Virus genome (UHGV): UHGV-0147886
Direction: 5' to 3' (one strand)
DNA: 12,817 bases
Source: a virus
Positions 1-12,749 of the stretch are shown here, piece by piece; within the stretch, counting starts at the first letter, position 1; the number at the start of each line of letters is the position of its first letter. The notes beneath the pieces are model-generated. The model was not told the DNA's origin. It made no database searches and saw nothing but the letters and a program-made list of their open reading frames with translations. Made by a program: the position numbers and the translations under genes.

Positions 1-40
1 CCGTAGTTTCATAGTCGAGTTGCAGATCTGCAACTCGCCA
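1..40. repeat. 40-bp direct repeat, copy A; contains a 22-bp perfect palindrome CGAGTTGCAGATCTGCAACTCG (16-37)
   Basis: Positions 1-40 are identical to 435-474 (40/40), with 3 of the next 4 bases also matching. The palindrome is centred on AGATCT and includes GATC. Confidence 0.9.
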
Positions 41-150: not shown

Positions 151-323
151 GTATATATATACAAAACAGTGCGGGTTATGCGGGTTAGCGGGTTATCTTC
201 GCGTGCTAAGTATTTTTTATTATTTAATATCAATGCGTTGAAAAATGACATGTTCAAATGTTAGCCAAATCGTAACCCGCAAGTCATTCAAAATAACCCG
301 CAACCTCTCTCAAATAACCCGCA
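151..323. repeat. Iteron cluster 1 (putative origin-like or cis replication region)
   Basis: Alternating GTATATATATAC tract at 151-162. Three tandem direct GCGGGTTA(T/G) units at 171-196. AT-rich spacer 197-272. Three inverted copies (A)TAACCCGCA at 273-281, 293-302 and 314-323 with 21-bp phasing. Same motif and layout as the cluster at 7846-7970. Confidence 0.6.
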
Positions 324-518: not shown

Positions 519-809
519 TTACCGCCGTAAGTGCTCCGGCTTCCTCCACTGGTAAGTATTTTTCGCGCTCTCCCTCCGTTGTTGAGAACGGCGACGGTAT
601 GCCAGCAACTCAAGAACTCTGGTTCGTATGTTGCGCATATCCACGCCGTTAAGCTCAATACCGTCACGGCGCATTACCTCAGCCACCACACGCGCGTAAT
701 TTTCGGCTATCACGCTGTCCGGCTGTGTAGCCTGTTCGTCAGGCTGACGACTGATTCCGGTAATGCGGCGAATTATTTTTAGTAGATCAGTTTCAGTCAT
801 TCTCGTCAT
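519..809 (-). CDS. Hypothetical 96-aa protein, translationally coupled to terL
   Basis: ATG at 809-807 overlaps the terL stop (ATGA overlap at 806-809). Last ORF of the head/packaging operon. No recognisable motif. Confidence 0.6.
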   Translation of the reverse strand: MTRMTETDLLKIIRRITGISRQPDEQATQPDSVIAENYARVVAEVMRRDGIELNGVDMRNIRTRVLELLAYRRRSQQRRESAKNTYQWRKPEHLRR

Positions 810-2455
810 ACCCCATCAAATGCCGCAAGTCGCTCTTTCTGGCTGTCGCTCATATCAAATGCAAATTCCTCATGCTCAGCCTGGAATGTGCCAAACGCCA
901 TCAGCGCCGCAACGCTCGGGTCTATCTTATTGGATGATTTTTTCTTGTTCGGCTTGATATTGGCGTTCGCGTCACTCTGCATCACAACATTACTCATTGA
1001 CCAGGCCAGCACCGGATCACCACGATGAACAATCACCTTCCGGTTAACAAAAACTTCGAACGATTTCGCCGCCGGACTAAAACGAAGGTACGTTTGCGGG
1101 AACGGCTCCACCTCAAATCCCGCTCCCTGTAGCTGCGTCCTCAGGTGCGTGGCGTTCCATGTATCGAAACCCACCAGCCTGATATTGAAATTCTCTGCAT
1201 CCGCCATGATGTCATCACGGATACGGTCATAATCAATGCAGTCACCCGGTGTTGTGCGTATCCAGCCCGCCTTTACCCACTGGCGATAGATGGCGCGGTT
1301 TTTATTGGCGGGGTTCTGTAGCTGAAATTCCGGTAGATAGTGACGTGAAACCAGCATAATCTTTTTACCGACCGGGAAGGCATAGCACACGCTGGAAATA
1401 TCGCTGGTTGATGATAAGTCCAGCCCCGCATAGCACTCCTGCCCGTATAAATCCGCCTCAGCGAACGTTCCGGCGCACTCCGCCCATGCACCGTTACCCA
1501 TCCACGGCGTAGCCCCCTGACACCAGATATTGAATCGCTTGGTGAGCATTTCCACCCACTGCGACGGAATACCCCGCGCTTTCTGGATGGTTGAGGCCAG
1601 TTTTTCACGATCGATATTGGGATTCGCCTTTATCCACATCGCCGGATCGTCAACCTCGCTTTCATCATCCAGCTCGTAAATCAGTACGAACATGGATTCG
1701 TTCACCTCTTCACCATCCAGTATCTGGCAGCAATAGTCGTAGTGTTGTTTACAGGCTGAAACAACGTTGCTCCCCGATGTGGTGATGGCAAATAACAGCC
1801 CCTCCGGACGCGCCCCCATCCCCAGTTCAAGTGCGGAATAAACCCCGTTGTCTGGGTGCAGGTGATATTCATCCACAATGGCAAGACTCGGGTTTGTCCC
1901 CTCAATGGTTGCCGCTTTTGCTGCCAGTGGCTTTAACAGGCTGTTGGTTTTCGGGTGTATCACCTTGTGCGCCTGAATATTTACCCGCTTTCGTAACGGT
2001 CGGGATAAAAGGCACATCTGACGCGCATCATCAAACACGATCCGCGCCTGATCACGACTCACGGCGGCGGTGTAAATATCCTGCTGCCCGTTTTCCATAA
2101 CCAGAAACCAGTTAGCCAGGATAGCGGCGACCGTGGATTTGGCATTTTTTCGCGGTACTTCAATGAATGCGCTGGTGTATTTGCGCCGTCCGGTGGCCTT
2201 AACCTTAAATCCCAGGATGCAGGCAAAGGCGAACTGCTGCCACGGCTCAAGTTCAATGGGGCTACCGCGCATTGCGCCTTTTACGTGCGGGCACACCCGG
2301 GAAAAGGCAATAAACCGCTCCACGACCTCCGGATCGAACGTGTAAAGGGAGTTTTCAAGGTCAGAAAAATACCGTTTAACAGCCTGTTTCAGTCGTTTAC
2401 AGGCCGTAATTTTGCCGTTTTTTACGCCTTCTGCGTACTCATGCCAGGCGGTCAA
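806..2455 (-). CDS. terL: Phage terminase large subunit (TerL)
   Basis: 549-aa ORF with Walker A-like VPRKNAKST and Walker B-like LAIVDEYH in the N-terminal half and a C-terminal nuclease-like region. Directly downstream of terS with 17-nt overlap. First codon at 2455 is TTG, preceded by AGAGGA; no in-frame ATG nearby, so the exact start is uncertain. Confidence 0.9.
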   Translation of the reverse strand: MTAWHEYAEGVKNGKITACKRLKQAVKRYFSDLENSLYTFDPEVVERFIAFSRVCPHVKGAMRGSPIELEPWQQFAFACILGFKVKATGRRKYTSAFIEVPRKNAKSTVAAILANWFLVMENGQQDIYTAAVSRDQARIVFDDARQMCLLSRPLRKRVNIQAHKVIHPKTNSLLKPLAAKAATIEGTNPSLAIVDEYHLHPDNGVYSALELGMGARPEGLLFAITTSGSNVVSACKQHYDYCCQILDGEEVNESMFVLIYELDDESEVDDPAMWIKANPNIDREKLASTIQKARGIPSQWVEMLTKRFNIWCQGATPWMGNGAWAECAGTFAEADLYGQECYAGLDLSSTSDISSVCYAFPVGKKIMLVSRHYLPEFQLQNPANKNRAIYRQWVKAGWIRTTPGDCIDYDRIRDDIMADAENFNIRLVGFDTWNATHLRTQLQGAGFEVEPFPQTYLRFSPAAKSFEVFVNRKVIVHRGDPVLAWSMSNVVMQSDANANIKPNKKKSSNKIDPSVAALMAFGTFQAEHEEFAFDMSDSQKERLAAFDGV

Positions 2456-2795
2456 GTTCGTCCTCTTCCTCTGTTTCCGGTGGATTTCTGCGACGGCTTA
2501 CCGGGTCAAAACCCAGCAAAGAAGCCATTTTGATCATTATTCTTTCTGCGTCAGCCTTTGCGCTCAGTGCGGGGTTTCTGCTCTCGCTGCCCTGACTGTT
2601 AACAATGCTGAACCCGCGCGTCGCAAGGTCTTCGACGGCTTTGCGGTATATAGAGTAGTTAACGCAATACAGTTCCAGATTGCTCCAGTCGGCGGGGGTA
2701 AGGTCTTCCCGCCCGGAAAGCTGGCGCGATTTTTCCTTCCACTGCCTGACCGCGATTTCATCCAGGTAAGCGGGGGCTTTTGGTGGTCTTGCCAT
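2439..2795 (-). CDS. terS: Phage terminase small subunit, P27-family-like
   Basis: 119 aa from ATG 2795-2793 (MARPPKAPAYLDE...). Size and sequence pattern match P27-family TerS and it sits immediately 5' of terL. The longer ORF to 2936 is read-through of the G-rich intergenic region and is rejected. Confidence 0.8.
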   Translation of the reverse strand: MARPPKAPAYLDEIAVRQWKEKSRQLSGREDLTPADWSNLELYCVNYSIYRKAVEDLATRGFSIVNSQGSESRNPALSAKADAERIMIKMASLLGFDPVSRRRNPPETEEEDELDRLA

Positions 2796-2811
2796 GTTCT
2801 TTTTTCGCCCA

Positions 2812-2840
2812 ATTATTTTCAAAAAAATTACCGTGCACAA
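2812..2840 (-). promoter_or_regulatory. Candidate sigma70-like promoter for terS-terL
   Basis: Minus strand reads TTGTGC (2840-2835), a 17-nt spacer, then AATAAT (2817-2812), about 20 nt upstream of the terS ATG. Hexamers read by eye, not scored. Confidence 0.35.
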
Positions 2841-2846
2841 AAATTT

Positions 2847-2906
2847 GAGGGGGCGGTCGGTGTCCGGCAGGGACGGTTTCGTCCTGAAAACCACCCCCAC
2901 CCCCTC
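2847..2906. other. Nested G/C-tract inverted repeat in the HNH-terS gap: candidate cos/packaging site or intrinsic terminator
   Basis: GAGGGGG (2847-2853) and CCCCCTC (2900-2906) are reverse complements and bracket an inner hairpin (2868-2886, loop GTTT). On the minus strand the structure is followed by AAATTTTT and further T runs. Confidence 0.35.
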
Positions 2907-3083
2907 TGACGGCCTCACCAGCGATTGCGAAAACATTCCATGACCTCGCGGTCACGGTCGGTTAATCGCTTCGCTGTGGTGCGTTTTGTGCGCCCTGTCC
3001 TGTTGGCTTTGTGCTCTGTCTCCTGTGTCTTCCATGTGTCACGCTGCCTTATCAGTCCACGTATCAGCCTGGTTTGCTCCTGT

Positions 3084-3524
3084 TCAGTCATCATCGCCAT
3101 ACATCCAGTCGTTACGGTGTGCCGCCCGTTCTTCCTGCTCGCGATACATGCCCGCTTTACGGTTTGTTTTCGTGGCTGGATCTTCCCGTGTCGTCTTACG
3201 GTTGTGGCACGTCTGGCACAATGCCTGGTGATTCCACTCAGGCCAGAAGAGAACATCACCGCCGCCATTGATGGGAATGATGTGATCCACCACAAGAGCT
3301 GGCGTATAAATCCCCTTAGCCAGACAACGCACGCATAACGGGTTTTTGCTCAGGTACAGGGCGCGGTATTTGTCCCACTGTCGGGAATACCCGCGCGCGC
3401 GGCGGTGTCCCCGTCTGGCATCCTCTGCACGCCATGCAGCCCGCCTGTGCTCTTCACACTTGCCGGACTTCACGCGCTTATTACAGCCAGGCTCAGTGCA
3501 TCGCCTTAATGGTTGCCACGGCAT
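3084..3524 (-). CDS. HNH endonuclease (phage packaging-associated)
   Basis: 146 aa. N-terminal Cys cluster CTEPGCNKRVKSGKCEEH and HNH core ...VVDHIIPINGGGD...WNHQALCQTCHNRK. Start ATG shares one base with the connector stop (TGATG). Sits next to terS, as is typical for HK97-like cos-type packaging modules. Confidence 0.85.
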   Translation of the reverse strand: MPWQPLRRCTEPGCNKRVKSGKCEEHRRAAWRAEDARRGHRRARGYSRQWDKYRALYLSKNPLCVRCLAKGIYTPALVVDHIIPINGGGDVLFWPEWNHQALCQTCHNRKTTREDPATKTNRKAGMYREQEERAAHRNDWMYGDDD

Positions 3525-3826
3525 CAGTACACCCCTACGTCACGATAAACTGACCAGAGCGCAGAAATAGCCATAGGCAGTTCCGAGTGCTCCACTGGTG
3601 AAACCGCTTCCCGGTTCTCGTACAGGAAAGCGATGTACATCAGGCAACCAACACGCATTGCCGGGGTAAATTCCAGCCCGTCTTCAAAACGTTTCCCGAT
3701 ATGCTTCTGGCAGGCTTCCAGCGCCGCATCGGTATACATTTTCAGAAGTTCGCCTTCACCGGATAAATCATCATCAAGTCGAAGATGTGCCCTGACTTCA
3801 TCAGGTGTAATTCTGGCTTCACTCAT
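3524..3826 (-). CDS. gp6-like head-tail connector/adaptor protein
   Basis: 100 aa from ATG 3826-3824 with RBS AGGGAG 5 nt upstream. N-terminus ...ITPDEVRAHLRLDDDLSGEGELL... matches the characteristic start of gp6-like head-tail connector proteins. Overlaps the portal stop by 8 nt. Confidence 0.7.
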   Translation of the reverse strand: MSEARITPDEVRAHLRLDDDLSGEGELLKMYTDAALEACQKHIGKRFEDGLEFTPAMRVGCLMYIAFLYENREAVSPVEHSELPMAISALWSVYRDVGVY

Positions 3827-5033
3827 CTTTTCTCCCTTTAATTTCCACAGTCTGTTTCCATGCCTGGCTGAACTCATCACCACCTTCACGCGGCGGCATA
3901 CCCTCACGCTCACGGGCTTCGTTCGGATTCATGATCCCGTTCTTAATCCCTTTCTCATACGTGGCATAACGTTCGGTGGGTGTGGCGCGTAATAAATCGG
4001 CTGAATCAAACTCAACCAGATAACGGGTACCAGGTACGGGAGAAGCCACCAGCAAAGCGGCCTTGATTTGCTGTTCGAAGTTCGCCAGCCACGGGCGCAT
4101 TGTCATGGTCAGAAACGCGCGGCTTGCCTCGCTGAAATTGCTGTAGGTGCTGTTGCTGTATTCCTGCAGAAAAATAGGCGATACGTTGAACATGCGGGCG
4201 ATGTCTTCAATGGAGAAGCGACGGGAGGCCAGCCATTCCGCATCCTGGTTACTCATTCCCAGTTGCCTGTAATCCATGCCCCCTTCAAGGATTGGCGTTT
4301 TTCCGGCATTTTTCGCCCCCTTGTAGCGTTCCAGAGCATCCAATGCCTGTTTACCTTTCACGCCGTCCAGCCATTCGCCTGACGTGATAATCCCTGCCGC
4401 CATCATGCCATCTTTCATAATGCTGGCTCCGTGACGCTGTTGAGCAAGGCCAAGCCCCAGCGCCTCACGGCAAATCGTGACGGGGGAACGCCCCAGAAAG
4501 CCATCATCCGAGGCATAGCGGAGATGCAAAACTTCTTCCTGTAAATACGTGCGCACCGTTCCTGTACAGGGTTCGGTGATGGTATAGCGGTATTTGTGTG
4601 CGCCTGTGCGTTCCGGTACAACACACCCCGGCGCATAAGGATGAAGTGATTTTGGCTGCCCGTCCTGCCCCCACTCAATAACCGCATAGGCGTTACCGTT
4701 CAGCAGGCAGTGACGCATCATTGTGCGTTTAAACTGGTAAGGTGTCTGGCACGAATTAGGCTGCTCATTCAGCAGAATATCTACCGGGTGACTGTCCAGC
4801 CATTCCCGCGCCTCCCTGCCCTTGTCATTACGTACCAGATACAGATAACACGGCATCGTGGCCACCGCCTCAGCGATGACAGAAACCGCATTCATCACTG
4901 CAGGCAATGATTCAGCCGTCCCGGCAGAAACATATTCTCCGGATCCGGTATTCGGTACGCCGGACAGCGCCAGAAAATCATCAATGGACAGGTTACGCTG
5001 CTCGCTTTTTTTACGACTAAAAGGCCACCACAT
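3819..5033 (-). CDS. Phage portal protein, HK97 family-like
   Basis: About 404 aa from ATG 5033-5031, which lies 1 nt after the protease stop (TGATATG). Size and sequence pattern, including a conserved C-terminal region (...FSIEDIARMFNVSPIFL...NPNEAREREGMPP...), fit HK97-type portals. The upstream extension to 5123 starts at TTG with no usable RBS. Confidence 0.85.
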   Translation of the reverse strand: MWWPFSRKKSEQRNLSIDDFLALSGVPNTGSGEYVSAGTAESLPAVMNAVSVIAEAVATMPCYLYLVRNDKGREAREWLDSHPVDILLNEQPNSCQTPYQFKRTMMRHCLLNGNAYAVIEWGQDGQPKSLHPYAPGCVVPERTGAHKYRYTITEPCTGTVRTYLQEEVLHLRYASDDGFLGRSPVTICREALGLGLAQQRHGASIMKDGMMAAGIITSGEWLDGVKGKQALDALERYKGAKNAGKTPILEGGMDYRQLGMSNQDAEWLASRRFSIEDIARMFNVSPIFLQEYSNSTYSNFSEASRAFLTMTMRPWLANFEQQIKAALLVASPVPGTRYLVEFDSADLLRATPTERYATYEKGIKNGIMNPNEAREREGMPPREGGDEFSQAWKQTVEIKGRKDE

Positions 5034-5034
5034 A

Positions 5035-5595
5035 TCACAACCCCGCCAGCTCAGACCAGCGATGACGATTATTTCCTGTCGGACGTAATTCAGGGTGCTG
5101 TGCAAACAACGAACGGTGGGCAATCTCCACGCCAGATTCTGGATAAGCAGGCATCGACGTTATTGTGATTTCACGGAGTTCAGCGGCGGTTACGGTACGC
5201 AGATACGGTTTTTGCGCGATACTCCACTCCTCGCATAATGCGCGAAAACCAAAGCTCATTCCTGTAATGTCGCCACGCTCCACCAGCGTAAGCACATCTT
5301 TTCCAAGCTGGGTATCCGGCGGTGTCAGTTCAAAACGTAACCCGGTGTTATCCTCAGTCAGTACCAGAGTGCCGGATTTGGTGCGCCCCAGCAGTTGGGT
5401 ATAGTCATGCTCATACAGGCAGCGCACATCATTACCCGTCGCCAGATAGTCAGCAAAAGCCCCCGGCGTGAACTGTTCGCGGAATTCGTCCCAGATAATT
5501 TCTGAAAGGCTGTTCCAGCGAACGGCATACCCCACCAGCTTTTTATTGCTGGCGGTCAGTTCAGATGTGCGGATTTCAAAATCGGTGTTTTTCAT
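5035..5595 (-). CDS. HK97-family prohead protease
   Basis: 186 aa with the prohead-protease pattern (...GYAVRWN...FTPGAF...CLYEHD...LGRT...GDITGMSFGF). ATG 5595-5593 with GGAG 7 nt upstream. Confidence 0.85.
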   Translation of the reverse strand: MKNTDFEIRTSELTASNKKLVGYAVRWNSLSEIIWDEFREQFTPGAFADYLATGNDVRCLYEHDYTQLLGRTKSGTLVLTEDNTGLRFELTPPDTQLGKDVLTLVERGDITGMSFGFRALCEEWSIAQKPYLRTVTAAELREITITSMPAYPESGVEIAHRSLFAQHPELRPTGNNRHRWSELAGL

Positions 5596-5606
5596 CGGTG
5601 TACTCC

Positions 5607-5637
5607 ATAAAGCTGAAAAAGGAGGCCGCAGCCTCCT
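5607..5637 (-). terminator. Intrinsic terminator-like hairpin between major capsid and protease genes
   Basis: On the minus strand, AGGAGGC-TGCG-GCCTCCT (7-bp GC-rich stem, 5620-5637) is followed directly by TTTTTCAGCTTT. Confidence 0.55.
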
Positions 5638-5649
5638 CCTTACTCATGA

Positions 5650-6819
5650 CTAGCCAGCTTTCATTTCCAGAATTTTGATGGCGTTTGAATCCACCACACC
5701 ACCGCCCAGATATTTATCCGTGTGGACCTTGTAGAATCCGGGTTCAGTAATGTTGTCCGGTCGGGTGCGAATCCCTGTTACATGATCAACGATGAAATAA
5801 CCACGACTGAAATCGCCAACCGCCAGCGGTGCTTTTCCTGCGCCGATGTCCGGCATGGACTCCAGGCAGTAAACAGGACGACCAAGCAACATATCCGGCG
5901 CACCGTCTTTAAGGCTGTCGCGCCAGATATAATCGCCGTTCTCATTTTTCAGCTTCTGTAGTGTCCCTGCCGTACCCGAGTTCATCACCCAGACGGCATT
6001 TTTGCGGTATTTCGCTTTCAGCTTGTAGAGAATGTCGATCAGTTCGTCCGCTGTAATGGCGGTTCCACTTGCCGCTACCATTTTTTCAATGGTGCCAAAA
6101 GCGCGGGTTTTGTCACTGGTCGCCGCACGGGTGTAAGCCATGAAGCCTTTCGGCTTGCCGTTACCGTCGCCATTAACAAAATCATCCTCTTCGGTGCTGG
6201 CGAACGTGTCGGCAATTTCGGAGGATAACCAGCCCAGAATATCCACCTCTGAAAAATCAAGGATTTCCTGCGTGGTTTTCGGGTAGGCGTAGATCGGATT
6301 CAGCTTGATGGTTACGCGTTCAATTTTCGGGGTGTTGGTTTCACTGCGTGCGCTGCCTTCTGTGCCTCGTCCTACAGTTGCGCCGCCAGTGGAAACCAGT
6401 TTCTGAAACTCATTTGATTTTGCAGTCTTCACGGTCGCGATCACGCGCATAACACTGTCATCCTGTAGCTGGCGCATGACTTCGCGATCGAGCTCAGGAA
6501 TTACGGTATATCCGCCATCCCTGCCGCTGTCAGTGCTGGTGGACAGTGATCGCACATCTCCGGTTACGATGTAGTTACGCAATTCATCAGATGATAATTT
6601 CTGGATGCCCGTTCCTGGCTTGCTGCGTTCTTCATCAGCCACAGACTCGAGGCGGGAAATTTCTGTGTCGAGGGAGTCGGCTTTTGCACGCAGTTCATCA
6701 AACTGTTTGCCCTCGTCATCGTTCAGGCTGCGGTTTTCACTGTCGGCTTTTTCCAGCAGGGATCGCATCTGGTTTTTCAGGGCGGTTTTTTGCTGGCGGA
6801 GTTCGATTAATTTCTTCAT
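5650..6819 (-). CDS. Major capsid protein, HK97 fold, with N-terminal scaffold/delta-like coiled-coil region
   Basis: 389 aa. The first ~100 aa are charged and coiled-coil-like (MKKLIELRQQKTALKNQMRSLLEKADSENRSL...), followed by an MCP-like body (...NGDGNGKPKGF...). First gene of the head operon, after a long untranslated leader. Confidence 0.9.
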   Translation of the reverse strand: MKKLIELRQQKTALKNQMRSLLEKADSENRSLNDDEGKQFDELRAKADSLDTEISRLESVADEERSKPGTGIQKLSSDELRNYIVTGDVRSLSTSTDSGRDGGYTVIPELDREVMRQLQDDSVMRVIATVKTAKSNEFQKLVSTGGATVGRGTEGSARSETNTPKIERVTIKLNPIYAYPKTTQEILDFSEVDILGWLSSEIADTFASTEEDDFVNGDGNGKPKGFMAYTRAATSDKTRAFGTIEKMVAASGTAITADELIDILYKLKAKYRKNAVWVMNSGTAGTLQKLKNENGDYIWRDSLKDGAPDMLLGRPVYCLESMPDIGAGKAPLAVGDFSRGYFIVDHVTGIRTRPDNITEPGFYKVHTDKYLGGGVVDSNAIKILEMKAG

Positions 6820-7052
6820 GAAGGTTTTCTCGTATTGGTTAAGATTCAGGACGTGAAACCAACACGGAGGGAGCGCCGCCCGACACTCTCGGCATCTCGC
6901 AGATCAACCCGGCATCGCGCAGGGGGTCAGGCGGCATTGTGGCGGCTCACGTCTGAGTGCCACACGCCAACATATACATAAAAATCAGTATGTAAATATC
7001 AGCCAGAATCACTGAACAGCCAGAAACAACCACGAACAAATAATTTACAAAA

Positions 7053-7084
7053 CCTGAAAAAAAGACCCGGGAAAAATCCGGGCC
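7053..7084 (-). terminator. Rho-independent terminator closing the replication operon
   Basis: On the minus strand, a GGCCCGG/CCGGGTC stem (5-7 bp, GC-only) with loop ATTTTTC is followed by TCTTTTTTT. Lies 10-40 nt downstream of the 82-aa ORF stop. Confidence 0.6.
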
Positions 7085-7093
7085 TTTATCGCT

Positions 7094-7342
7094 TTACTGT
7101 TTCACGGGATCGCGCATTCTGCGCCTTATTTTCCACAAATATTCGATCATCGCTTCCACCTGCTCACGGTTGGTTGCGAAAATTTCCCCGGTCAGTGAGC
7201 TGCGCAGAAAATCATGATGATCCACAACAAATAACGCATCGGAAGAAAGCAGACGGCGATATTTTTTTGCTGTCGTGGTTTCCAGATCATCAATACCATG
7301 AAACTTTTTATGTTGCTGAACTTCTTCAAATGTCACTGGCAT
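7094..7342 (-). CDS. Hypothetical 82-aa protein
   Basis: ATG 7342-7340 with strong RBS AGGGGGA. 17 nt downstream of the ssb stop and followed by the terminator. No recognisable motif. Confidence 0.6.
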   Translation of the reverse strand: MPVTFEEVQQHKKFHGIDDLETTTAKKYRRLLSSDALFVVDHHDFLRSSLTGEIFATNREQVEAMIEYLWKIRRRMRDPVKQ

Positions 7343-7359: not shown

Positions 7360-7782
7360 CTAAAAGGGTATGTTATCCCCGTATGGATCATCATTCCCCG
7401 CCTGTTGCTTAGCCCTATTTAGAGCGTCAGTAGCCTGACCCTGCTGGCCTTTTTTGCCACCAGGTCGCGCCGTTCTGGCACTGATTACGCTGTCTGCGAT
7501 AACCTGCCAGCCCTGCCGCGTTTCCCCGTTCTGGCCTGTCCACTGGCTTACCTGCATGTTACCCGCCACGCTCACCAGCTCGCCTTTGTGGTGTTTTGCC
7601 AGTGCGTCGGCCTGTCTGCCAAACGCCAGGACGGATAACCACATCGTCGCCTGTCCGTCATCTGCCTGATTGCACGGCAGGTGGACCGCCATGCTTGCCA
7701 TAGCCATTTGTGTGCCCTTGCTGGTGGTCTTTAACTGCGGGTCAGCCACCAGCCGCCCGTAAGCTGCTATCTGTGCTGTCAT
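7360..7782 (-). CDS. ssb: Single-stranded DNA-binding protein (SSB)
   Basis: 140 aa. OB-fold SSB pattern (...WLSVLAFGRQADALAKHHKGELVSVAGNMQVSQWTGQNGETRQGWQVIADSV...) and an acidic C-terminal tail ending DDPYGDNIPF, like the conserved bacterial SSB tip ending DIPF. Confidence 0.8.
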   Translation of the reverse strand: MTAQIAAYGRLVADPQLKTTSKGTQMAMASMAVHLPCNQADDGQATMWLSVLAFGRQADALAKHHKGELVSVAGNMQVSQWTGQNGETRQGWQVIADSVISARTARPGGKKGQQGQATDALNRAKQQAGNDDPYGDNIPF

Positions 7783-7845
7783 GCTGTCTGTTCTCCGGTT
7801 TTAACGTTGATAGTTACGCTTGTTTACACCCTTACGGTGAAATTC

Positions 7846-7970
7846 TGCGGGTTATAATCGCACTTTTGCGGGTTATAACTGCCGTTTTGCGGGTTACGTG
7901 CGGGTTATTGATTTCCTTTTTATTCATACAGTTAATTCACTTATACACAGGATAACCCGCATAACCCGCA
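7846..7970. repeat. Iteron cluster 2 (putative origin-like region), immediately 3' of the replication protein gene
   Basis: Four direct TGCGGGTTA(T/C) units at 7846-7855, 7867-7876, 7888-7897 and 7899-7908 (21-, 21-, 11-bp phasing). AT-rich spacer 7909-7951. Two inverted ATAACCCGCA units at 7952-7961 and 7961-7970. Confidence 0.65.
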
Positions 7971-7993: not shown

Positions 7994-10117
7994 TTAATCG
8001 TCTGCCTCAGGCTGGAACATCATCACGTAAAAAACATGCTGCTTACCCCCAATTTTGCCGAGCGCCTTTTTCTTGTAACGGCGATCGTTACCCGCTTCCA
8101 GCATTCCGGCAGCACTCAACGCGCGGGCAAAGTGAGACGGATTAAATCCCTGTGCTATCTCACCCTCAAACACATGAGGAAACGTGTAAAAACGGAACTC
8201 ATCATCTTCATTTCTGATACTCCCCTTTCTGTATCCGGCAAGGTCTTTAATCGGTAAATCACGCTCATCACTGTTTGGGTAAGGAAGGTATCGACTGAAC
8301 CCGAACGACGACAAAAACGCCTCAGCCTGTTCAACCATCTGTTTAAATTCCCTGTTACCCGTGCCGAACTCCTTCACCCAGGCATTAAAGTTATGCTGTA
8401 TTGCGTCCCGGCATTCCTGCGCGGCCCAGCCAGTTACATGACCGGAAAGCACAAGCGCAGCCTCCAGTATGGCGAAACGTTCCCCCACGCGGTGGACCTG
8501 CTCGCCGTAGCTCTCCGGTATCAGGTTGTGCCACCGTTCGCGGCATTCCCTTACCGTGTCCTTTGCCTCCTGCTGGTGGTCTGCCAGCCATTTAACCCAC
8601 TCACGACCCGCCGCCCCGTGATTTGCAGTCCAGGCATCCTTTAACGCGTCTGCGTGCGCCTTTCCGGTGCTGTATTCGTGAAATTGCGTGGCTTTCTCCA
8701 TCGGTACGTTAAGCAGACGGACAAGCTGGCCTGCTTTGACTTTTACCCCCTCACTTTTGAGGAATGTCTCAACATCCATTTCTCCGGTGCTGATTGCCAC
8801 CGTGCGCCAGTGTTTGATCTCCCTGTTGCCGCCGTCCTTCGCCCCCTGTAATTTCCCCGAACCGTTAAACAGCGTATAGGCTGACGTGGACACTTCCCGC
8901 GCGTTTCCGGCCTGGCCTATTTCATCCAGGGGTAACAGCCCGTCGTTGTGTGCTTCGGCCTCGTTGGCGATACCTAACGCCGTTCCGTACCAGGTCAGCC
9001 GTTGCGCGTCCGGCTCTCCCCATAAACTTGAAGCGATGTTCTGCGTGGTGGTTTTCCCTGCCGATGACTGTTCGAAAAGATGTACCCCGAAGCCGTCAGC
9101 ACCAACAAGGCCAATCAAAGGTGCTGCCAGTGACGTGGCAACACCCAGCATCATGGACGGATTGCCACCAGCCAGCCGCGCCACGCTGTCGCGCCAGCCC
9201 TCCGCCGTACCCGCAACCGAATAGCCATTAACAGCGGCACTTTTTCCGGTAAACAGGATCGGTTTTTCAGAATCACCAATGATTGAACCGTCCGGCATGA
9301 TGTACGCGCCAAAATGCCAGCCCGTTGTTGTGCTTAACTGCCATTCCTCATGGCTTCCGCTTAACTGCATCCAGTCAGCCAGGATAGCCCTGTATTTGCC
9401 ATTTGTTGTCACATTCAGCCCGTGATCTTTAAGCAACCGCCAGCCGTCACGGTCGCCAATGCCACCACACGGGATCGCCATTGTGATGACTTCATGGTTT
9501 GCTAATTTTTTCCAGCGCATCACGCGGTAATGCTCTTTACCGATCGTCCCCGTTCCCAGTAGTTCAAGCGGAGAACATAACCACGTCTCAGGCCGGATAA
9601 TTTCGCCTGACTGCTTATCCACTTTGGGCGTTACCCAGAAAACACCATCGACGCGACTTTCAACGCGGGGCTTTAATTCATCATCCTGATAGCATGGCTC
9701 TTTTTTCTTTACAGGCAGTTCAACTACCTTTTTCTTTTCCGCCTGCTCTGCCCGTTCACGTTCCAGATATTCGCGCCAGTTCTCCCGTTTCTGGCTGTGC
9801 ATTCCTTCAGGATAATAATCAGCATCCCTGACACCTGCCGCTGCCAGTTTCTGCCCGATGGTATTAACAAGCCCCGGACGCAATAACCCCGCCTGATAGA
9901 GACGCACGCGATAGCGTCCGTCCGGTACGATTTGCAGGTTGTCCAGTTCGGCAAGTTGTTGCTCTCCAAGCCAGACAGGAGGCACGTTATCGCCAGCCAG
10001 TCGCCCGTCCTGTTCCTGCCACTGCTTCGCATGTGCCCACGCATCACTACCCGCAAAAATGATGACTTCCGTCATTTTGTCACGCGGCTGGTGTTTTAAA
10101 TTTGGCGCTTTTTTCAT
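7994..10117 (-). CDS. Replication initiator, P-loop NTPase of the primase-helicase type (SF3/DUF927-like)
   Basis: About 707 aa from ATG 10117-10115 (RBS GGAGAG; ATGA overlap with the upstream ORF; alternative GTG at 10132). Central Walker A ...EQSSAGKTTT... and Walker B ...LLPLDEIG.... Followed directly by the iteron cluster. A primase function for the N-terminal domain is inferred from context only. Confidence 0.75.
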   Translation of the reverse strand: MKKAPNLKHQPRDKMTEVIIFAGSDAWAHAKQWQEQDGRLAGDNVPPVWLGEQQLAELDNLQIVPDGRYRVRLYQAGLLRPGLVNTIGQKLAAAGVRDADYYPEGMHSQKRENWREYLERERAEQAEKKKVVELPVKKKEPCYQDDELKPRVESRVDGVFWVTPKVDKQSGEIIRPETWLCSPLELLGTGTIGKEHYRVMRWKKLANHEVITMAIPCGGIGDRDGWRLLKDHGLNVTTNGKYRAILADWMQLSGSHEEWQLSTTTGWHFGAYIMPDGSIIGDSEKPILFTGKSAAVNGYSVAGTAEGWRDSVARLAGGNPSMMLGVATSLAAPLIGLVGADGFGVHLFEQSSAGKTTTQNIASSLWGEPDAQRLTWYGTALGIANEAEAHNDGLLPLDEIGQAGNAREVSTSAYTLFNGSGKLQGAKDGGNREIKHWRTVAISTGEMDVETFLKSEGVKVKAGQLVRLLNVPMEKATQFHEYSTGKAHADALKDAWTANHGAAGREWVKWLADHQQEAKDTVRECRERWHNLIPESYGEQVHRVGERFAILEAALVLSGHVTGWAAQECRDAIQHNFNAWVKEFGTGNREFKQMVEQAEAFLSSFGFSRYLPYPNSDERDLPIKDLAGYRKGSIRNEDDEFRFYTFPHVFEGEIAQGFNPSHFARALSAAGMLEAGNDRRYKKKALGKIGGKQHVFYVMMFQPEADD

Positions 10118-10413
10118 TTCTGCTCTCTCCACGCGGCAATCATGTTTTTCAGTTCCTGTAGTTTTTTATCCACATCCACACGTGACACATGGTTATTTCT
10201 GGAAAGCGGGATTTCCCGCCGGAATCTGCAAATAAAGATCTCCACGTTCAGCGAACTATGAAATGAATAGCCATCACGAATAAAATAAACACGGTCAAAC
10301 ATCAGTTCTTTTACCGTTACTCTGTTACCGTTCTTATCCAGATAAATAGCGCCGGGGATAATTTTGGGGTGTGCATAACCGCTGGCAGTCAAGCCAGATA
10401 AATATGTTCTCAT
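10114..10413 (-). CDS. Hypothetical 99-aa protein
   Basis: ATG 10413-10411. Stop overlaps the replication protein start (ATGA). Part of a tightly coupled operon. No recognisable motif. Confidence 0.55.
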   Translation of the reverse strand: MRTYLSGLTASGYAHPKIIPGAIYLDKNGNRVTVKELMFDRVYFIRDGYSFHSSLNVEIFICRFRREIPLSRNNHVSRVDVDKKLQELKNMIAAWREQK

Positions 10414-10740: not shown

Positions 10741-10936
10741 GGCACACCCCCTGACGAATACGGGCGGCGAATACCATCACGCAGCCAGCCGGGGATTGCT
10801 GGCGTGCTTCCTGTTCGCTGGTGGCCACGATGTGAATCACGCGCGGTTGTGCGGTGCTCAGGGCGATAAAACGCCAGATGTATTTATTCAGGTTGTGCGA
10901 GTCCCGCCCTTGCGGGTGTATGGTATGATTTCTCAT
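10733..10936 (-). CDS. Hypothetical 67-aa protein, first gene of the replication operon (possibly Icd-like; weak recollection only)
   Basis: ATG 10936-10934 with GAGG 5 nt upstream. The longer ORF to 11026 starts at TTG inside the promoter region. The motif ...WRFIALSTAQPRVIHIVATSEQEARQQ... resembles small Icd-like proteins that sit upstream of primases in enterobacterial islands. Not verified. Confidence 0.45.
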   Translation of the reverse strand: MRNHTIHPQGRDSHNLNKYIWRFIALSTAQPRVIHIVATSEQEARQQSPAGCVMVFAARIRQGVCHA

Positions 10937-11034
10937 AACTGCCTCGATACTCTCGTTATCGTTGGTGGTTAGACGCCCCGTATGTGTTTCCGGCACTGCG
11001 GGGCGTTGCTCTTTGTATTTCAACAATCCTTTCG

Positions 11035-11112
11035 GTGTGTTTCATGTTATGAGCGCATGAAACACACGTCAAGGCTTTTTGTATTTCTTTTTTTGTGTAT
11101 ACTGAAACACAC
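11035..11112. promoter_or_regulatory. Divergent control region: palindromic operator overlapping a sigma70-like promoter for the replication operon
   Basis: Perfect inverted repeat GTGTGTTTCATG (11035-11046), 9-nt spacer, CATGAAACACAC (11056-11067). A third half-site-like ACTGAAACACAC at 11101-11112. Minus-strand -35 TTGACG (11072-11067), 17-nt spacer, -10 TAACAT (11049-11044), so the palindrome covers the spacer and -10. A TATACT hexamer at 11098-11103 may serve the plus-strand gene. Confidence 0.55.
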
Positions 11113-11133
11113 CGATGATTAGGAGTTTCAGAA

Positions 11134-11439
11134 ATGGCAACGGCTAACAAAAACGCAAAATCACAACTGACAACTGTCAGAGTCCCACTAGATGTTATGC
11201 AAGGGATGGAATCCGTTAAGCTGGACGGCGAAAGCAATGCCGGATTTATCGTAACCGCCATGCGCGGAGAAATAGCCCGCCGCCAAGCAGAAGGCAGCGG
11301 AGAAAATCCCCTTGTGTCGTCACTGGATGCCCTGGCTAAGGTCGAACAAATCGGCATCAAAGCAGCGGAAGAAATCGGGCAGCTTGTCACCGTTGCACGC
11401 GAAGAACTCCAGCGTCGCAAGACCAAAGAACCAGAGTAA
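11134..11439 (+). CDS. Putative small DNA-binding regulator (possible ribbon-helix-helix), divergent from the replication operon
   Basis: 101 aa. ATG 11134 with RBS AGGAG 8 nt upstream. N-terminal strand-helix-helix-like segment (...QLTTVRVPLDVMQGMESVKL...GFIVTAMRGEIARRQ...). Regulator role inferred from position next to the operator. Confidence 0.6.
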   Translation: MATANKNAKSQLTTVRVPLDVMQGMESVKLDGESNAGFIVTAMRGEIARRQAEGSGENPLVSSLDALAKVEQIGIKAAEEIGQLVTVAREELQRRKTKEPE

Positions 11440-11496
11440 TCACCATCAGCGCCTTGGTGTAAGGTATTACGGCGCATTGCTATGCAGGACAACACA

Positions 11497-11670
11497 ATGA
11501 CCGATAAAGAATTGACCAAAACATTATCACCGGCACGGAAAAGACGGCGCAGAAAGATAGAGCATGAATCAGAAAGATTCGCGCCATGTGCTTTTGCTCT
11601 TGAGAAATTCCTTAAAGAGCACAGGAAAAAGCTCTCGTTGCAAACCTTGGAACGAACCGAATCTGACTGA
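11497..11670 (+). CDS. Hypothetical small basic protein (57 aa)
   Basis: ATG 11497 with AGGA 7 nt upstream (alternative ATG at 11482). Highly basic stretch ARKRRRRK. Followed by a strong terminator. Coding status uncertain. Confidence 0.35.
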   Translation: MTDKELTKTLSPARKRRRRKIEHESERFAPCAFALEKFLKEHRKKLSLQTLERTESD

Positions 11671-11734
11671 TCAAATTGCCCACCAGCCAGCAAATCGCTA
11701 TGATGTTCGAGCTTATGTTTAGTGTTTTCCCATT

Positions 11735-11763
11735 GGCGACCGCCCCCGGTCGCCTTTGTTTTA
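11735..11763 (+). terminator. Rho-independent terminator for the plus-strand unit
   Basis: GGCGACCG-CCCC-CGGTCGCC (8-bp stem, 4-nt loop, 11735-11754) followed by TTTGTTTTAT. On the minus strand the hairpin has no T tract after it. Confidence 0.7.
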
Positions 11764-12444
11764 TGCGCGATCATGTGCCGCCTCCCACTCATATTTATCG
11801 AAATCAATCTGCCCCATCGCATCTACCAGCCGTACCGCCGGACGCAGAACTTTGAGTTCCTTCTTGCGGATATTCATTCCATTACTGCCCTGTGAGCCAT
11901 GAAACTGCTTAGAATGCTTGTCCGCACGAGTCACGGCGTTTTGCGCATCAGTAACCGGCATGGCGATCAGTTCTTCGAGCGACGGCAGATCCACATGATG
12001 GAAAGTGACAAACTCCGGGCAACGGAAATAAGTTTTCACGAGCTGGCGCTGTACCTGCCAGGCCAAATCATCGTTAAACGGTTTGGTCAGCAGCAGATAG
12101 CCTGATTCCGTAATCAGTGTTACGCGGCCACGTATCGGACTGTTCATTTTTTTGCCAGGGCGTTTAATGCCCCTGTCTAAATATCCAGCCCCTCCCCATT
12201 CGACCTCTGACGCGCCGACAATAAAAAAGTCCTCACCATCAATGAAGCGAGTGCGATTACGCTGAAAAGTCTTTTTAGCCGTGTCTTTAGGTCGCTGGTG
12301 CGCGGTATCAATCATTGCGAACGTCACCACGCGTTGCCCGTGAAATTCGACGGCAGGAAGCTGTTTAAGCTGCACGCTAATATCGCTTTTACTGGCAACA
12401 GGGTGAGCGAATCCCTGCCCGTTAAGGGCATTAATATTTTTCAT
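11761..12444 (-). CDS. ORF6N-domain (KilA-N-like) phage regulatory protein
   Basis: 227 aa. N-terminal region ...GQRVVTFAMIDTAHQRPKDTAKKTFQRNRTRFIDGEDFF...LITESGYLLLTKPFNDDLAWQVQRQLVKTYF matches the ORF6N pattern (RG..VMLD.DLA..Y...TK.LN.AVKRN..RFPEDFMF...AFTE.GV.ML...). ATG 12444-12442. Confidence 0.65.
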   Translation of the reverse strand: MKNINALNGQGFAHPVASKSDISVQLKQLPAVEFHGQRVVTFAMIDTAHQRPKDTAKKTFQRNRTRFIDGEDFFIVGASEVEWGGAGYLDRGIKRPGKKMNSPIRGRVTLITESGYLLLTKPFNDDLAWQVQRQLVKTYFRCPEFVTFHHVDLPSLEELIAMPVTDAQNAVTRADKHSKQFHGSQGSNGMNIRKKELKVLRPAVRLVDAMGQIDFDKYEWEAAHDRA

Positions 12445-12464: not shown

Positions 12465-12749
12465 TTAAGCAGATTTGCGGCTGTACGGGTTATTGACGTT
12501 TTCCACGGCAGGCGGATTACGAACCCACCAGAGCACATCCGAAAGAAGCCAGGCACAGCTGTTGCGGCCAAAGTGACAGCGCGGCGGGAAGCGCCCCTGC
12601 TGTTCCATCTTCCAGCGGCTCGAACGAGAAAGACTGGTGATCTCGCTGCATTCATCTTCGCGGATTCGGCGATCGAACTTGAAGCCGTACTCCTCCAGAA
12701 TGGTGCGGCGTTGTTCAGGATTTGGCGGGGTAAAGGTGATAATTTGCAT
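12465..12749 (-). CDS. alpA: AlpA-family phage transcriptional regulator
   Basis: 94 aa from ATG 12749-12747 with RBS GGAGG. Motif ...ITSLSRSSRWKMEQQGRFPPRCHFGRNSCAWLLSDVLWWV... fits the AlpA helix-turn-helix pattern (S-R-[AS]-[ST]-x-[YW] ... FP ... G..S.AW...[DE]...W). The extension to 12809 is rejected. Confidence 0.75.
   Translation of the reverse strand: MQIITFTPPNPEQRRTILEEYGFKFDRRIREDECSEITSLSRSSRWKMEQQGRFPPRCHFGRNSCAWLLSDVLWWVRNPPAVENVNNPYSRKSA

Follow-up and report, generated by a model that had tools for sequence, protein, structure and literature searches.

The gene at positions 7360 to 7782 of the DNA analysed here (virus genome UHGV-0147886, a stretch of 12,817 nucleotides called the window below) near-certainly encodes a genuine SSB of bacterial type, a protein that binds single-stranded DNA. 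The window is an Escherichia coli capsid-forming phage-inducible chromosomal island (cf-PICI), and within the Gram-negative PICI/cf-PICI family the SSB is an accessory rather than a core protein. The reading we favor, with a probability of roughly 60%, is that this SSB is a dispensable accessory that coats satellite single-stranded DNA (ssDNA) and makes use of the partners of host SSB. The gene and the regions of its product are as follows.

7360..7782, minus strand: SSB gene, 140 aa plus a TAG stop (open reading frame list, Pfam, NCBIfam, PDB, Foldseek)
7474..7782, minus strand: OB-fold ssDNA-binding domain, residues 1-103 (alignment to MG1655 SSB, AF2 model)
7393..7473, minus strand: linker of about 27 aa, predicted to be disordered (AF2 pLDDT, family alignment)
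7363..7392, minus strand: C-terminal tip DDPYGDNIPF (family tail comparison, codon comparison)

A preliminary description of this DNA had noted an OB-fold SSB signature in the 140-aa protein, and the searches bear this out. The HMM search which that description had proposed as a check finds the SSB fold, with Pfam model PF00436 matching residues 5-99 at E=4.9e-17 and 62.3 bits (cut-off 26). The protein also passes NCBIfam model TIGR00621, scoring 63.9 bits against a cut-off of 53.95. A sequence search of PDB returned 28 matches, down to E=3e-11, of which 27 are SSBs, and a Foldseek search of PDB with the AF2 model returned SSBs for all of the top 50 hits, with probability 1.00 and TM of about 0.8. 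The coordinates first given for the gene stand, with the strand corrected to minus. A GGAG Shine-Dalgarno sequence lies at 7793-7796, ahead of the ATG, and the N-terminus MTAQIAAYGRL is kept in all homologs.

More specific models place the protein apart from well-known SSB subfamilies. The enterobacterial model PRK09010 gives it 26.5 bits, against a cut-off of 260 and a score of 360 for E. coli SSB. The F-like plasmid model PRK13732, to which host SSB scores 226.9 bits, does not match it at E<=0.001. Among 72,556 plasmid records, 66 match the satellite SSB lineage. Membership in the plasmid or chromosomal subfamilies is ruled out by the NCBIfam scores together with the plasmid search, and on these sequence comparisons the satellite SSB is a distinct lineage, neither chromosomal nor F-plasmid in type, whose members occur mainly in satellites.

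The AF2 model has strands at residues 2-11, 16-19, 25-36, 44-54, 69-82 and 88-101, with pLDDT between 78 and 91 over residues 1-100, dropping below 50 from residue 104 onward. Identity to MG1655 SSB (b4059) is 24% over 98 aa. Three of the four ssDNA-stacking aromatic residues of E. coli SSB (W40, W54, F60, W88) are retained: W48, F54 and W81 of the satellite protein are the aligned counterparts of W54, F60 and W88, and none of them varies across the family alignment. By the same pairwise alignment W40 is replaced by Cys37 and H55 by Leu49; H55 is a tetramer-stability residue of E. coli SSB. The linker, about 27 aa compared with about 56 aa in E. coli SSB, is modular within the family, the blocks GKKGQQGQATDALNRAKQQ and GQQGNQPPAG being found in some members and missing from others.

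The protein ends in ...NDDPYGDNIPF, and this tail has in common with the host tail MDFDDDIPF the terminal I-P-F, an acidic residue at position -4 and an aromatic residue at -6. The tail had been described as carrying a canonical DIPF tip. Its acidic, host-like, IPF-ended character holds up; residue -3 is Asn instead of Asp, giving NIPF, so the word canonical was a slight overstatement. The family consensus for the tip is D-D-P-[Y/F/W]-x-D-x-I-P-F. An [I/L/V]-P-F end occurs in 109 of the 120 best cluster representatives listed, and in those 120 the residue at -3 may be N, G, D, E or S. The tip mimics that of host SSB in sequence, and binding to host SSB partners is predicted.

All long reading frames of the window lie on the minus strand. 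Two features mark the two ends of the gene order.

12465-12749, minus strand: AlpA-type regulator (open reading frame list, domain searches)
806-6819, minus strand: HK97-type major capsid protein, prohead protease, portal, head-tail connector, HNH nuclease, TerS and TerL

The early genes run in the order AlpA, ORF6N/anti-repressor-like, Icd-like reading frame, 106-aa reading frame, DUF4222, DUF927 replicase, SSB and 82-aa reading frame. The reading frame list with Pfam and PHROG annotation shows no tail genes in the window. An island 96.9% identical to the window, annotated gene by gene in RefSeq, lies between hpt and gcd in E. coli PEC209, where it has a tyrosine integrase and flanking (att) repeats of 22 bp. 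The genes and origin layout expected of a Gram-negative PICI are present, AlpA, DUF927 and iterons in the window itself and integrase and att in the PEC209 island. The window shares the architecture of the described cf-PICI EcCIEDL933 (10.1101/2022.09.08.507074), and an EcCIEDL933-type island in an O157:H7 genome has the same layout. Helper-dependent induction and transfer have been shown in the literature for the prototype islands. A 40-nt direct repeat in the window (1-40 and 435-474) was considered as an att site and ruled out, because the PEC209 island is bounded by a different repeat, the one of 22 bp, that falls outside the window.

The surroundings of the SSB gene comprise the following features.

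7845..7970, no strand assigned: origin-like region, iterons flanking an AT-rich spacer
7994..10132, minus strand: DUF927 primase/helicase-type replicase, 712 aa (Pfam DUF927 E=7.9e-48; phrog_1139)
7094..7342, minus strand: 82-aa reading frame, phrog_1957, beginning 17 nt after the SSB stop
7057..7087, minus strand: intrinsic-terminator-like hairpin with a 10-bp stem, 7-nt loop and U-tract (RNA fold)

The iteron TGCGGGTTA occurs 11 times in the whole window, where 0.12 copies are expected by chance. Six copies fall at 7846-7970: four direct copies, TGCGGGTTA(T), at 7846, 7867, 7888 and 7899, then an AT-rich spacer at about 7909-7951, then two inverted copies at 7953 and 7962. The arrangement agrees with the origin layout reported for E. 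coli PICIs, two iteron sets on either side of an AT-rich region (PMC6092414). The SSB gene was previously said to adjoin origin-like iterons and to belong to the replication operon, and both statements are supported: it starts 63 nt downstream of the iteron/AT-rich origin and follows the replicase gene on the same strand, and a scan of the minus strand between the two genes found no terminator-like or promoter-like site.

The replicase matches phrog_1139, 'DNA primase', at E=3.6e-180, and weakly resembles the SCCmec Cch1 helicase (E=1.6e-10, below the cut-off of that model). An N-terminal domain of about 150 aa that it shares with other replicases has no match in Pfam or in a PDB sequence search. 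BLASTP, applied to the replicase (against P4 alpha) and to the 106-aa reading frame (against P4 ORF106), gave no P4 homology for either.

The hairpin at 7057-7087 folds with dG -17.7 kcal/mol (z = -3.3; none of 200 shuffles is as stable) and ends the early/replication transcription unit. A terminator pattern scanner called no terminator on the minus strand and overlooked this hairpin, which RNA folding revealed, because the stem takes up part of the T-run. The order proposed earlier, SSB between iterons and operon terminator, is therefore right in outline, with the amendment that the 82-aa reading frame intervenes before the terminator. Close homologs of that reading frame (>=93% identical) occur only in loci with a capsid module, and weak matches (31-51%) occur in most capsid-module loci, many without SSB among them. 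Rfam at gathering thresholds found no structured RNA, such as a P4 C4/isrK-like element, anywhere in the window.

The remaining iterons form a second group far from the origin.

170..323, no strand assigned: second iteron cluster, same iteron, mirror image of the origin cluster

Its copies lie at 170 and 179 on the plus strand and at 273, 294 and 315 on the minus strand, inside the island and near its distal end. The spacers have diverged from those of the origin cluster, so the distal cluster did not arise by recent duplication. Classical type-A PICIs and EcCIEDL933-type islands have the two clusters side by side, with the replicase gene before them and ssb after; in the cf-PICI sub-lineage of the window about 8 kb, consisting of ssb and the packaging module, separates them. 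A Leclercia element (L005) has the same split with a different iteron, and another element (L091) combines a type-B primary origin with a type-A distal cluster. The split recalls the separate ori and crr of P4, both with TGTTCACC repeats. The clusters could be a pair of the P4 ori/crr kind or, equally, what is left after modules were exchanged within an origin of two parts. They may be a more informative feature of this replicon than the SSB.

Of 5426 complete E. coli genomes, 1821 (34%) have a DNA match to the ssb region, usually over the ssb gene alone, and the gene is labelled 'single-stranded DNA-binding protein' in every matching genome. With the satellite SSB as query, a protein search gave 747 clusters at E<=1e-10. 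Those that carry a name in the listed top 120 are mostly from Escherichia, with others from Salmonella, Citrobacter and Shigella. More distant relatives, at 53-68% identity, come from Leclercia, Citrobacter, Edwardsiella and Scandinavium. Among 50,697 phage records there is no close relative; the best match has 31% identity, and the matches are mostly from phages of Gram-positive hosts.

The nearest phage SSBs, at 28-31% identity, come from staphylococcal and streptococcal siphophages, which bears on a possible role in recombination. Such siphophages are reported to depend on single-strand annealing recombinases (PMC5499656), and SSB C-terminal tails are listed as the contact for RecT-type recombinases (PMC13490951). 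In phages of this kind the annealing recombinases act together with a phage SSB. The satellite SSB might have as its partner RecA/RecFOR or a protein for single-strand annealing, supplied by the host or by a helper of the Red-beta type, in recombination-dependent replication that yields concatemers for HNH-TerS-TerL cos packaging. The helper prophage of CFT073 does encode Bet/Exo/Gam. The window, however, has no recombinase gene by reading frame list, Pfam or PHROG, and classical PICIs, which use helper packaging, carry the same SSB; we consider this role quite unlikely.

Comparison of the satellite SSB with its relatives gives dN/dS of 0.03-0.18, with synonymous divergence saturated. Over the last 10 codons, the window gene and the EcCIEDL933-type gene differ by seven synonymous changes and one non-synonymous change; because these differences are nearly all synonymous, the tip peptide itself is under selection. 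The codon comparisons thus show that the satellite SSB is under purifying selection, tail included. They also dispose of the idea that the gene is a hitch-hiker in decay, a remnant without function that the replication module has merely kept with it. Such a remnant would fit the absence of ssb from many related elements, its truncation to a stump of 53 aa in a Shigella element (L011) and its partial truncation in L118. The Shigella element is degenerate overall, since its capsid gene is split as well, and intact reading frames of 136-149 aa are found across six genera (Escherichia, Salmonella, Citrobacter, Leclercia, Edwardsiella and Scandinavium). With the selection analysis the remnant reading is effectively refuted, and we rate it extremely improbable.

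Two surveys, one anchored on the SSB and one on the capsid, bear on how the gene is distributed among satellites. The first took the 80 IMG/VR contigs with the most similar SSB (96-100% amino-acid identity), mostly classical PICIs without a capsid module. Upstream of nearly the same SSB these contigs have at least three kinds of replicase (full DUF927; P4-alpha-like D5_N/DUF5906/Pox_D5; AAA_25), and the iterons upstream of SSBs 96-100% identical belong to at least five families. It follows that the SSB is not specific to any one initiator or origin.

The second survey took 80 loci related by their major capsid protein and searched them by tblastn with six SSB queries and by hmmsearch --max, at E<=1. 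The preliminary description had held that absence of the gene from otherwise intact related elements would speak against its proposal, and absence is common: by tblastn and HMM, 25 loci have an SSB-like reading frame and 55 have none. A sister clade with capsids 76-78% identical, the full packaging module and often AlpA and a DUF927 replicase (65% identical) lacks it with one exception. L124 is among the loci without SSB despite a full packaging module, AlpA and a DUF927 replicase. Four loci with capsids 98-99% identical to that of the window also lack it. Two of them (L099, L102) have near-identical backbones and share DUF4222 and the replicase N-terminus with the window, while L101 and L115 differ in their early region. 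Because many intact related elements do without it, the SSB is an optional accessory that the replication module does not require. The notion that cf-PICIs have SSB as a conserved core gene, which arose from first surveys whose loci were picked by SSB similarity or from E. coli only, is overturned by the capsid-anchored result.

In SSB-less elements the stretch from origin to capsid genes holds other cargo, including reverse-strand reading frames that have no match in Pfam or PADLOC, and in E. coli genomes genes for PerC or ProQ/FinO variably stand beside ssb in the same slot. The slot between origin and late genes is a variable cargo site, and for that reason the SSB gene could serve conflict instead of replication. 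In one form of conflict the satellite SSB would vie with that of the host over ssDNA or over the proteins that bind SSB, so that limiting host replication and repair factors are biased toward the satellite and away from its lambdoid helper. The tip keeps the aromatic at -6, the acid at -4 and the IPF end, and is under purifying selection; the lambdoid helper is without this SSB lineage, which has no close relative among the phage records; and the gene borders on the interference/late module. Set against this, OB fold, linker and tip are the standard kit of any ordinary SSB, reported interference by E. coli PICIs acts on packaging (Rpp, own capsids) and not on replication, and the SSB-less sister clade is apparently viable. 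Interference of this kind strikes us as unlikely.

A related proposal would make the protein a mimic of host SSB, in which the conserved DDP[Y/F]xDxIPF tip and the shortened modular linker draw some of the proteins of the host SSB interactome, or alternatively helper recombinases, to satellite DNA. Mimicry would explain why E. coli PICIs whose replicases are unrelated keep the SSB almost the same, and why other cargo replaces it in sister lineages. It would give the satellite a replication advantage over the helper or alter its interaction with SSB-sensing defence. We regard both versions, host interactome and helper recombinases, as unlikely.

Defence is a further use to which a gene in the cargo slot could be put. 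Several defence systems are reported to be activated by phage SSBs. The satellite SSB might serve as decoy or modulator of SSB-sensing systems such as Retron-Eco8, AbpAB, DARNA and DRT10, or as their trigger, in which case a co-infecting phage would be aborted. PADLOC was blank for the SSB, its neighbors including the 82-aa reading frame, and the cargo reading frames of SSB-less relatives, which rejects a defence annotation for any of them, and the strongly conserved standard SSB architecture fits ordinary ssDNA binding. A defence-related role is purely speculative and in our judgment very unlikely.

The preliminary description had suggested protection of single-stranded intermediates, recruitment of host replisome factors and competition with the helper phage as candidate roles. 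The favored reading is the dispensable accessory that would coat satellite ssDNA. In EcCICFT073, AlpA activates the early operon and runaway replication depends on Pri (PMC6092414). Induction of a helper phage would lead AlpA to turn on the early operon of the window in the same manner, so that SSB would be made together with the replicase. As expected from established SSB biology, the protein would assemble as a homotetramer and would coat the ssDNA that runaway replication of the satellite produces on lagging strands and where the origin has melted, and so supplement the pool of host SSB that helper and satellite share. Through its host-like tip it would use host SSB partners, among them Pol III chi, PriA, RecQ and ExoI. 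Its action is probably generic and not origin-specific, because nearly the same SSB accompanies unrelated replicases and iteron types. It would boost replication and not enable it, because many satellites have no SSB and pri-ori alone is reported to replicate: a 'pri-ori' segment of EcCICFT073, which possibly still includes ssb, is enough to maintain a plasmid (Fillol-Salom et al., PMC6092414). Dispensability argues against a necessary role in replication.

How much is new in this finding is limited by what is already familiar. SSBs with host-type tips are a known theme among mobile elements, including conjugative plasmids and many phages. RefSeq already names the window protein 'single-stranded DNA-binding protein', and 'Primase, SSB and DUF5906' are assigned to the replication category of Gram-negative PICIs (PMC10111431). 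For these reasons the finding is already known in kind, and since the gene is both annotated and optional among related satellites it is an ordinary one. If the accessory reading is true, this is one more mobile element that brings its own SSB, and little changes. The cf-PICI and PICI papers searched neither mention nor test the SSB gene of EcCICFT073 or EcCIEDL933, and our literature search found no experiment on any PICI SSB and no reported PICI SSB function. Those two islands, the best-studied E. coli satellites, carry an ssb that roughly one in three complete E. coli genomes has. The gene bears on whether host SSB limits satellites during helper-induced runaway replication, and on whether foreign satellite SSBs matter to SSB-sensing defence systems.

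Among known systems, P4 resembles the window in its early-operon logic, in iterons bound by a primase-helicase and in having two separated iteron regions (crr at 4291-4590, ori at 9086-9809), and the P4 octamer TGTTCACC is found within GGTGAACAG, the iteron of type-B PICIs. P4 differs in that it encodes no SSB and in that its alpha protein has no BLAST similarity to the DUF927 replicase. SCC/SCCmec elements with the Cch helicase and an SSB, and Gram-positive mobile elements with PolA-SSB pairs, are comparable as integrative elements with their own replicative helicase and SSB, and their SSBs bind a cognate polymerase or primase through variable C-terminal extensions (PMC10061031). Unlike those SSBs, the satellite SSB has a tail that mimics the host tip and is not tied to one replicase. 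The SSBs of Staphylococcus and Streptococcus siphophages, the best full-length phage matches, stand in replication/recombination modules; they are distant in sequence, belong to phages of another host phylum, and have recombinase partners that are absent here.

The SSBs of F-like plasmids are also encoded by mobile elements, dispensable, and equipped with a host-type tail. Conjugative-plasmid SSBs can substitute for host SSB. On plasmids the SSB gene belongs to the leading region and serves the entry of ssDNA; the satellite gene, in contrast, follows a vegetative origin. E. coli SSB (b4059) shares the single OB fold, the equivalents of W54, F60 and W88, a disordered linker and an acidic tip; it differs in a linker about twice as long and in having W40 (Cys here), H55 (Leu here) and Asp at -3 (Asn here).

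The closest counterparts are the prototype islands EcCICFT073 of strain CFT073 (WP_000126698.1) and the EcCIEDL933 type (WP_000126692.1), whose SSBs belong to the same lineage; the EcCIEDL933-type gene has about 73% nucleotide identity to that of the window. The prototype proteins differ in length (136 aa), in a different linker block and in a small upstream reading frame that overlaps the start. PerC follows ssb where the window has the 82-aa reading frame, and the EcCICFT073 replicase is of another kind, 'DNA primase family'. In EcCICFT073 the SSB gene has the primase gene and origin on one side and PerC and the capsid homolog c1499 on the other, and its product ends in DDPYGDDIPF. In both prototypes ssb is placed as in the window, with the replicase gene and iterons ahead of it and the late/capsid genes behind, and the tails follow the same pattern, DDPYGD-[D/G]-IPF.

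Near its distal end the island has a second iteron cluster, the mirror image of the cluster at the primary origin. Three of its iterons, spaced 21 bp apart, are separated by an AT-rich spacer from two closely set inverted copies. When origin and distal clusters are compared, conservation is confined to the iterons themselves. Coordinates refer to the window, or to the related locus (L-number) where one is named.

170-323, distal iteron cluster, mirror image of the origin cluster at 7846-7970, iteron TGCGGGTTA
1-40 and 435-474, exact 40-nt direct repeat CCGTAGTTTCATAGTCGAGTTGCAGATCTGCAACTCGCCA, flanking the distal iteron cluster
L027 4806-5113 and L092 9610-9917, iteron clusters compared with those of the window

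The direct repeat lengthens to 121 nt, at 94% identity, in the PEC209 island (L001). As a candidate att core it was rejected: in PEC209 that core is a different repeat, of 22 bp, located beyond the window (L001 3660 and 19290).

The stretch from the origin and ssb to the capsid gene is a variable cargo slot. In the window it holds an 82-aa phrog_1957 ORF (7094-7342); other E. coli islands (hits H72-H87) carry PerC or ProQ/FinO genes there, and relatives that lack the SSB (L102 3524-5134, L124 7764-8658) have opposite-strand ORFs for which Pfam and PADLOC searches returned no match. A small ORF overlaps the start of ssb by ATGA in the prototype islands (EcCICFT073 and EcCIEDL933-type), and in some assemblies is fused in frame to the SSB, giving products of 165-220 aa (e.g. 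P0001 and P0109). The window has no such overlapping ORF, and its ssb directly abuts the origin. The Shigella flexneri SFBU1023 element (L011) is a degenerate cf-PICI, with ssb reduced to a 53-aa ORF (10001-10162) and the capsid gene split into ORFs of 291 and 109 aa (10781-11986).

L095 10285-10542 and L092 9326-9577, small ORF of 84-85 aa, 5' of ssb
6969-6996, minus strand, sigma-70-like promoter match TTTACA-16-TATGTT, downstream of the terminator and ahead of the capsid gene
11134-11439, plus strand, YlcI/YnfO-family ORF, within 10950-11830

The predicted promoter suggests that the packaging module would be transcribed apart from the replication/ssb unit. The interval of about 0.9 kb that separates the early operon genes from the ORF6N gene (10950-11830) contains no convincing minus-strand gene and matches no Rfam family; a 288-aa ORF there is probably spurious. 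P4-like C4/isrK RNAs have been reported from some Gram-negative PICIs (PMC10111431).

9680-10132, N-terminal region of the replicase, about 150 aa (residues 1-150)
L093 4323-4585 and 9310-9413, regions of P4 compared with the GGTGAACAG iteron

The replicase N-terminal region, for which neither Pfam nor PDB gave a sequence match, is 43-96% identical across replicases whose helicase cores, P4-alpha-like D5_N/DUF5906 and AAA_25 among them, are unrelated. Because it is common to these cores and to different iterons, it is a swappable module and does not determine origin specificity. The DUF927 replicase (7994-10132) also matches the SCCmec replicative helicase Cch1 weakly (E=1.6e-10, far below the cut-off), a similarity that links PICI and SCC replicases.

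An origin type that is common among E. coli PICIs uses the iteron GGTGAACAG (L020, L026, L091 and others), which includes the exact P4 type-1 octamer TGTTCACC and is paired with a P4-alpha-like (D5_N/DUF5906/Pox_D5) replicase. In EcCIEDL933-type islands, as in classical type-A PICIs, the two iteron clusters lie side by side; in the sub-lineage of the window about 8 kb, comprising ssb and the packaging module, separates them. A Leclercia element (L005) has clusters likewise split, with a different iteron (9850-9952 and 18255-18367), and L091 combines a type B primary origin with a type A distal cluster. The layout of two separate clusters resembles the ori and crr of satellite phage P4, or may instead be a remnant left by recombination within a bipartite origin.
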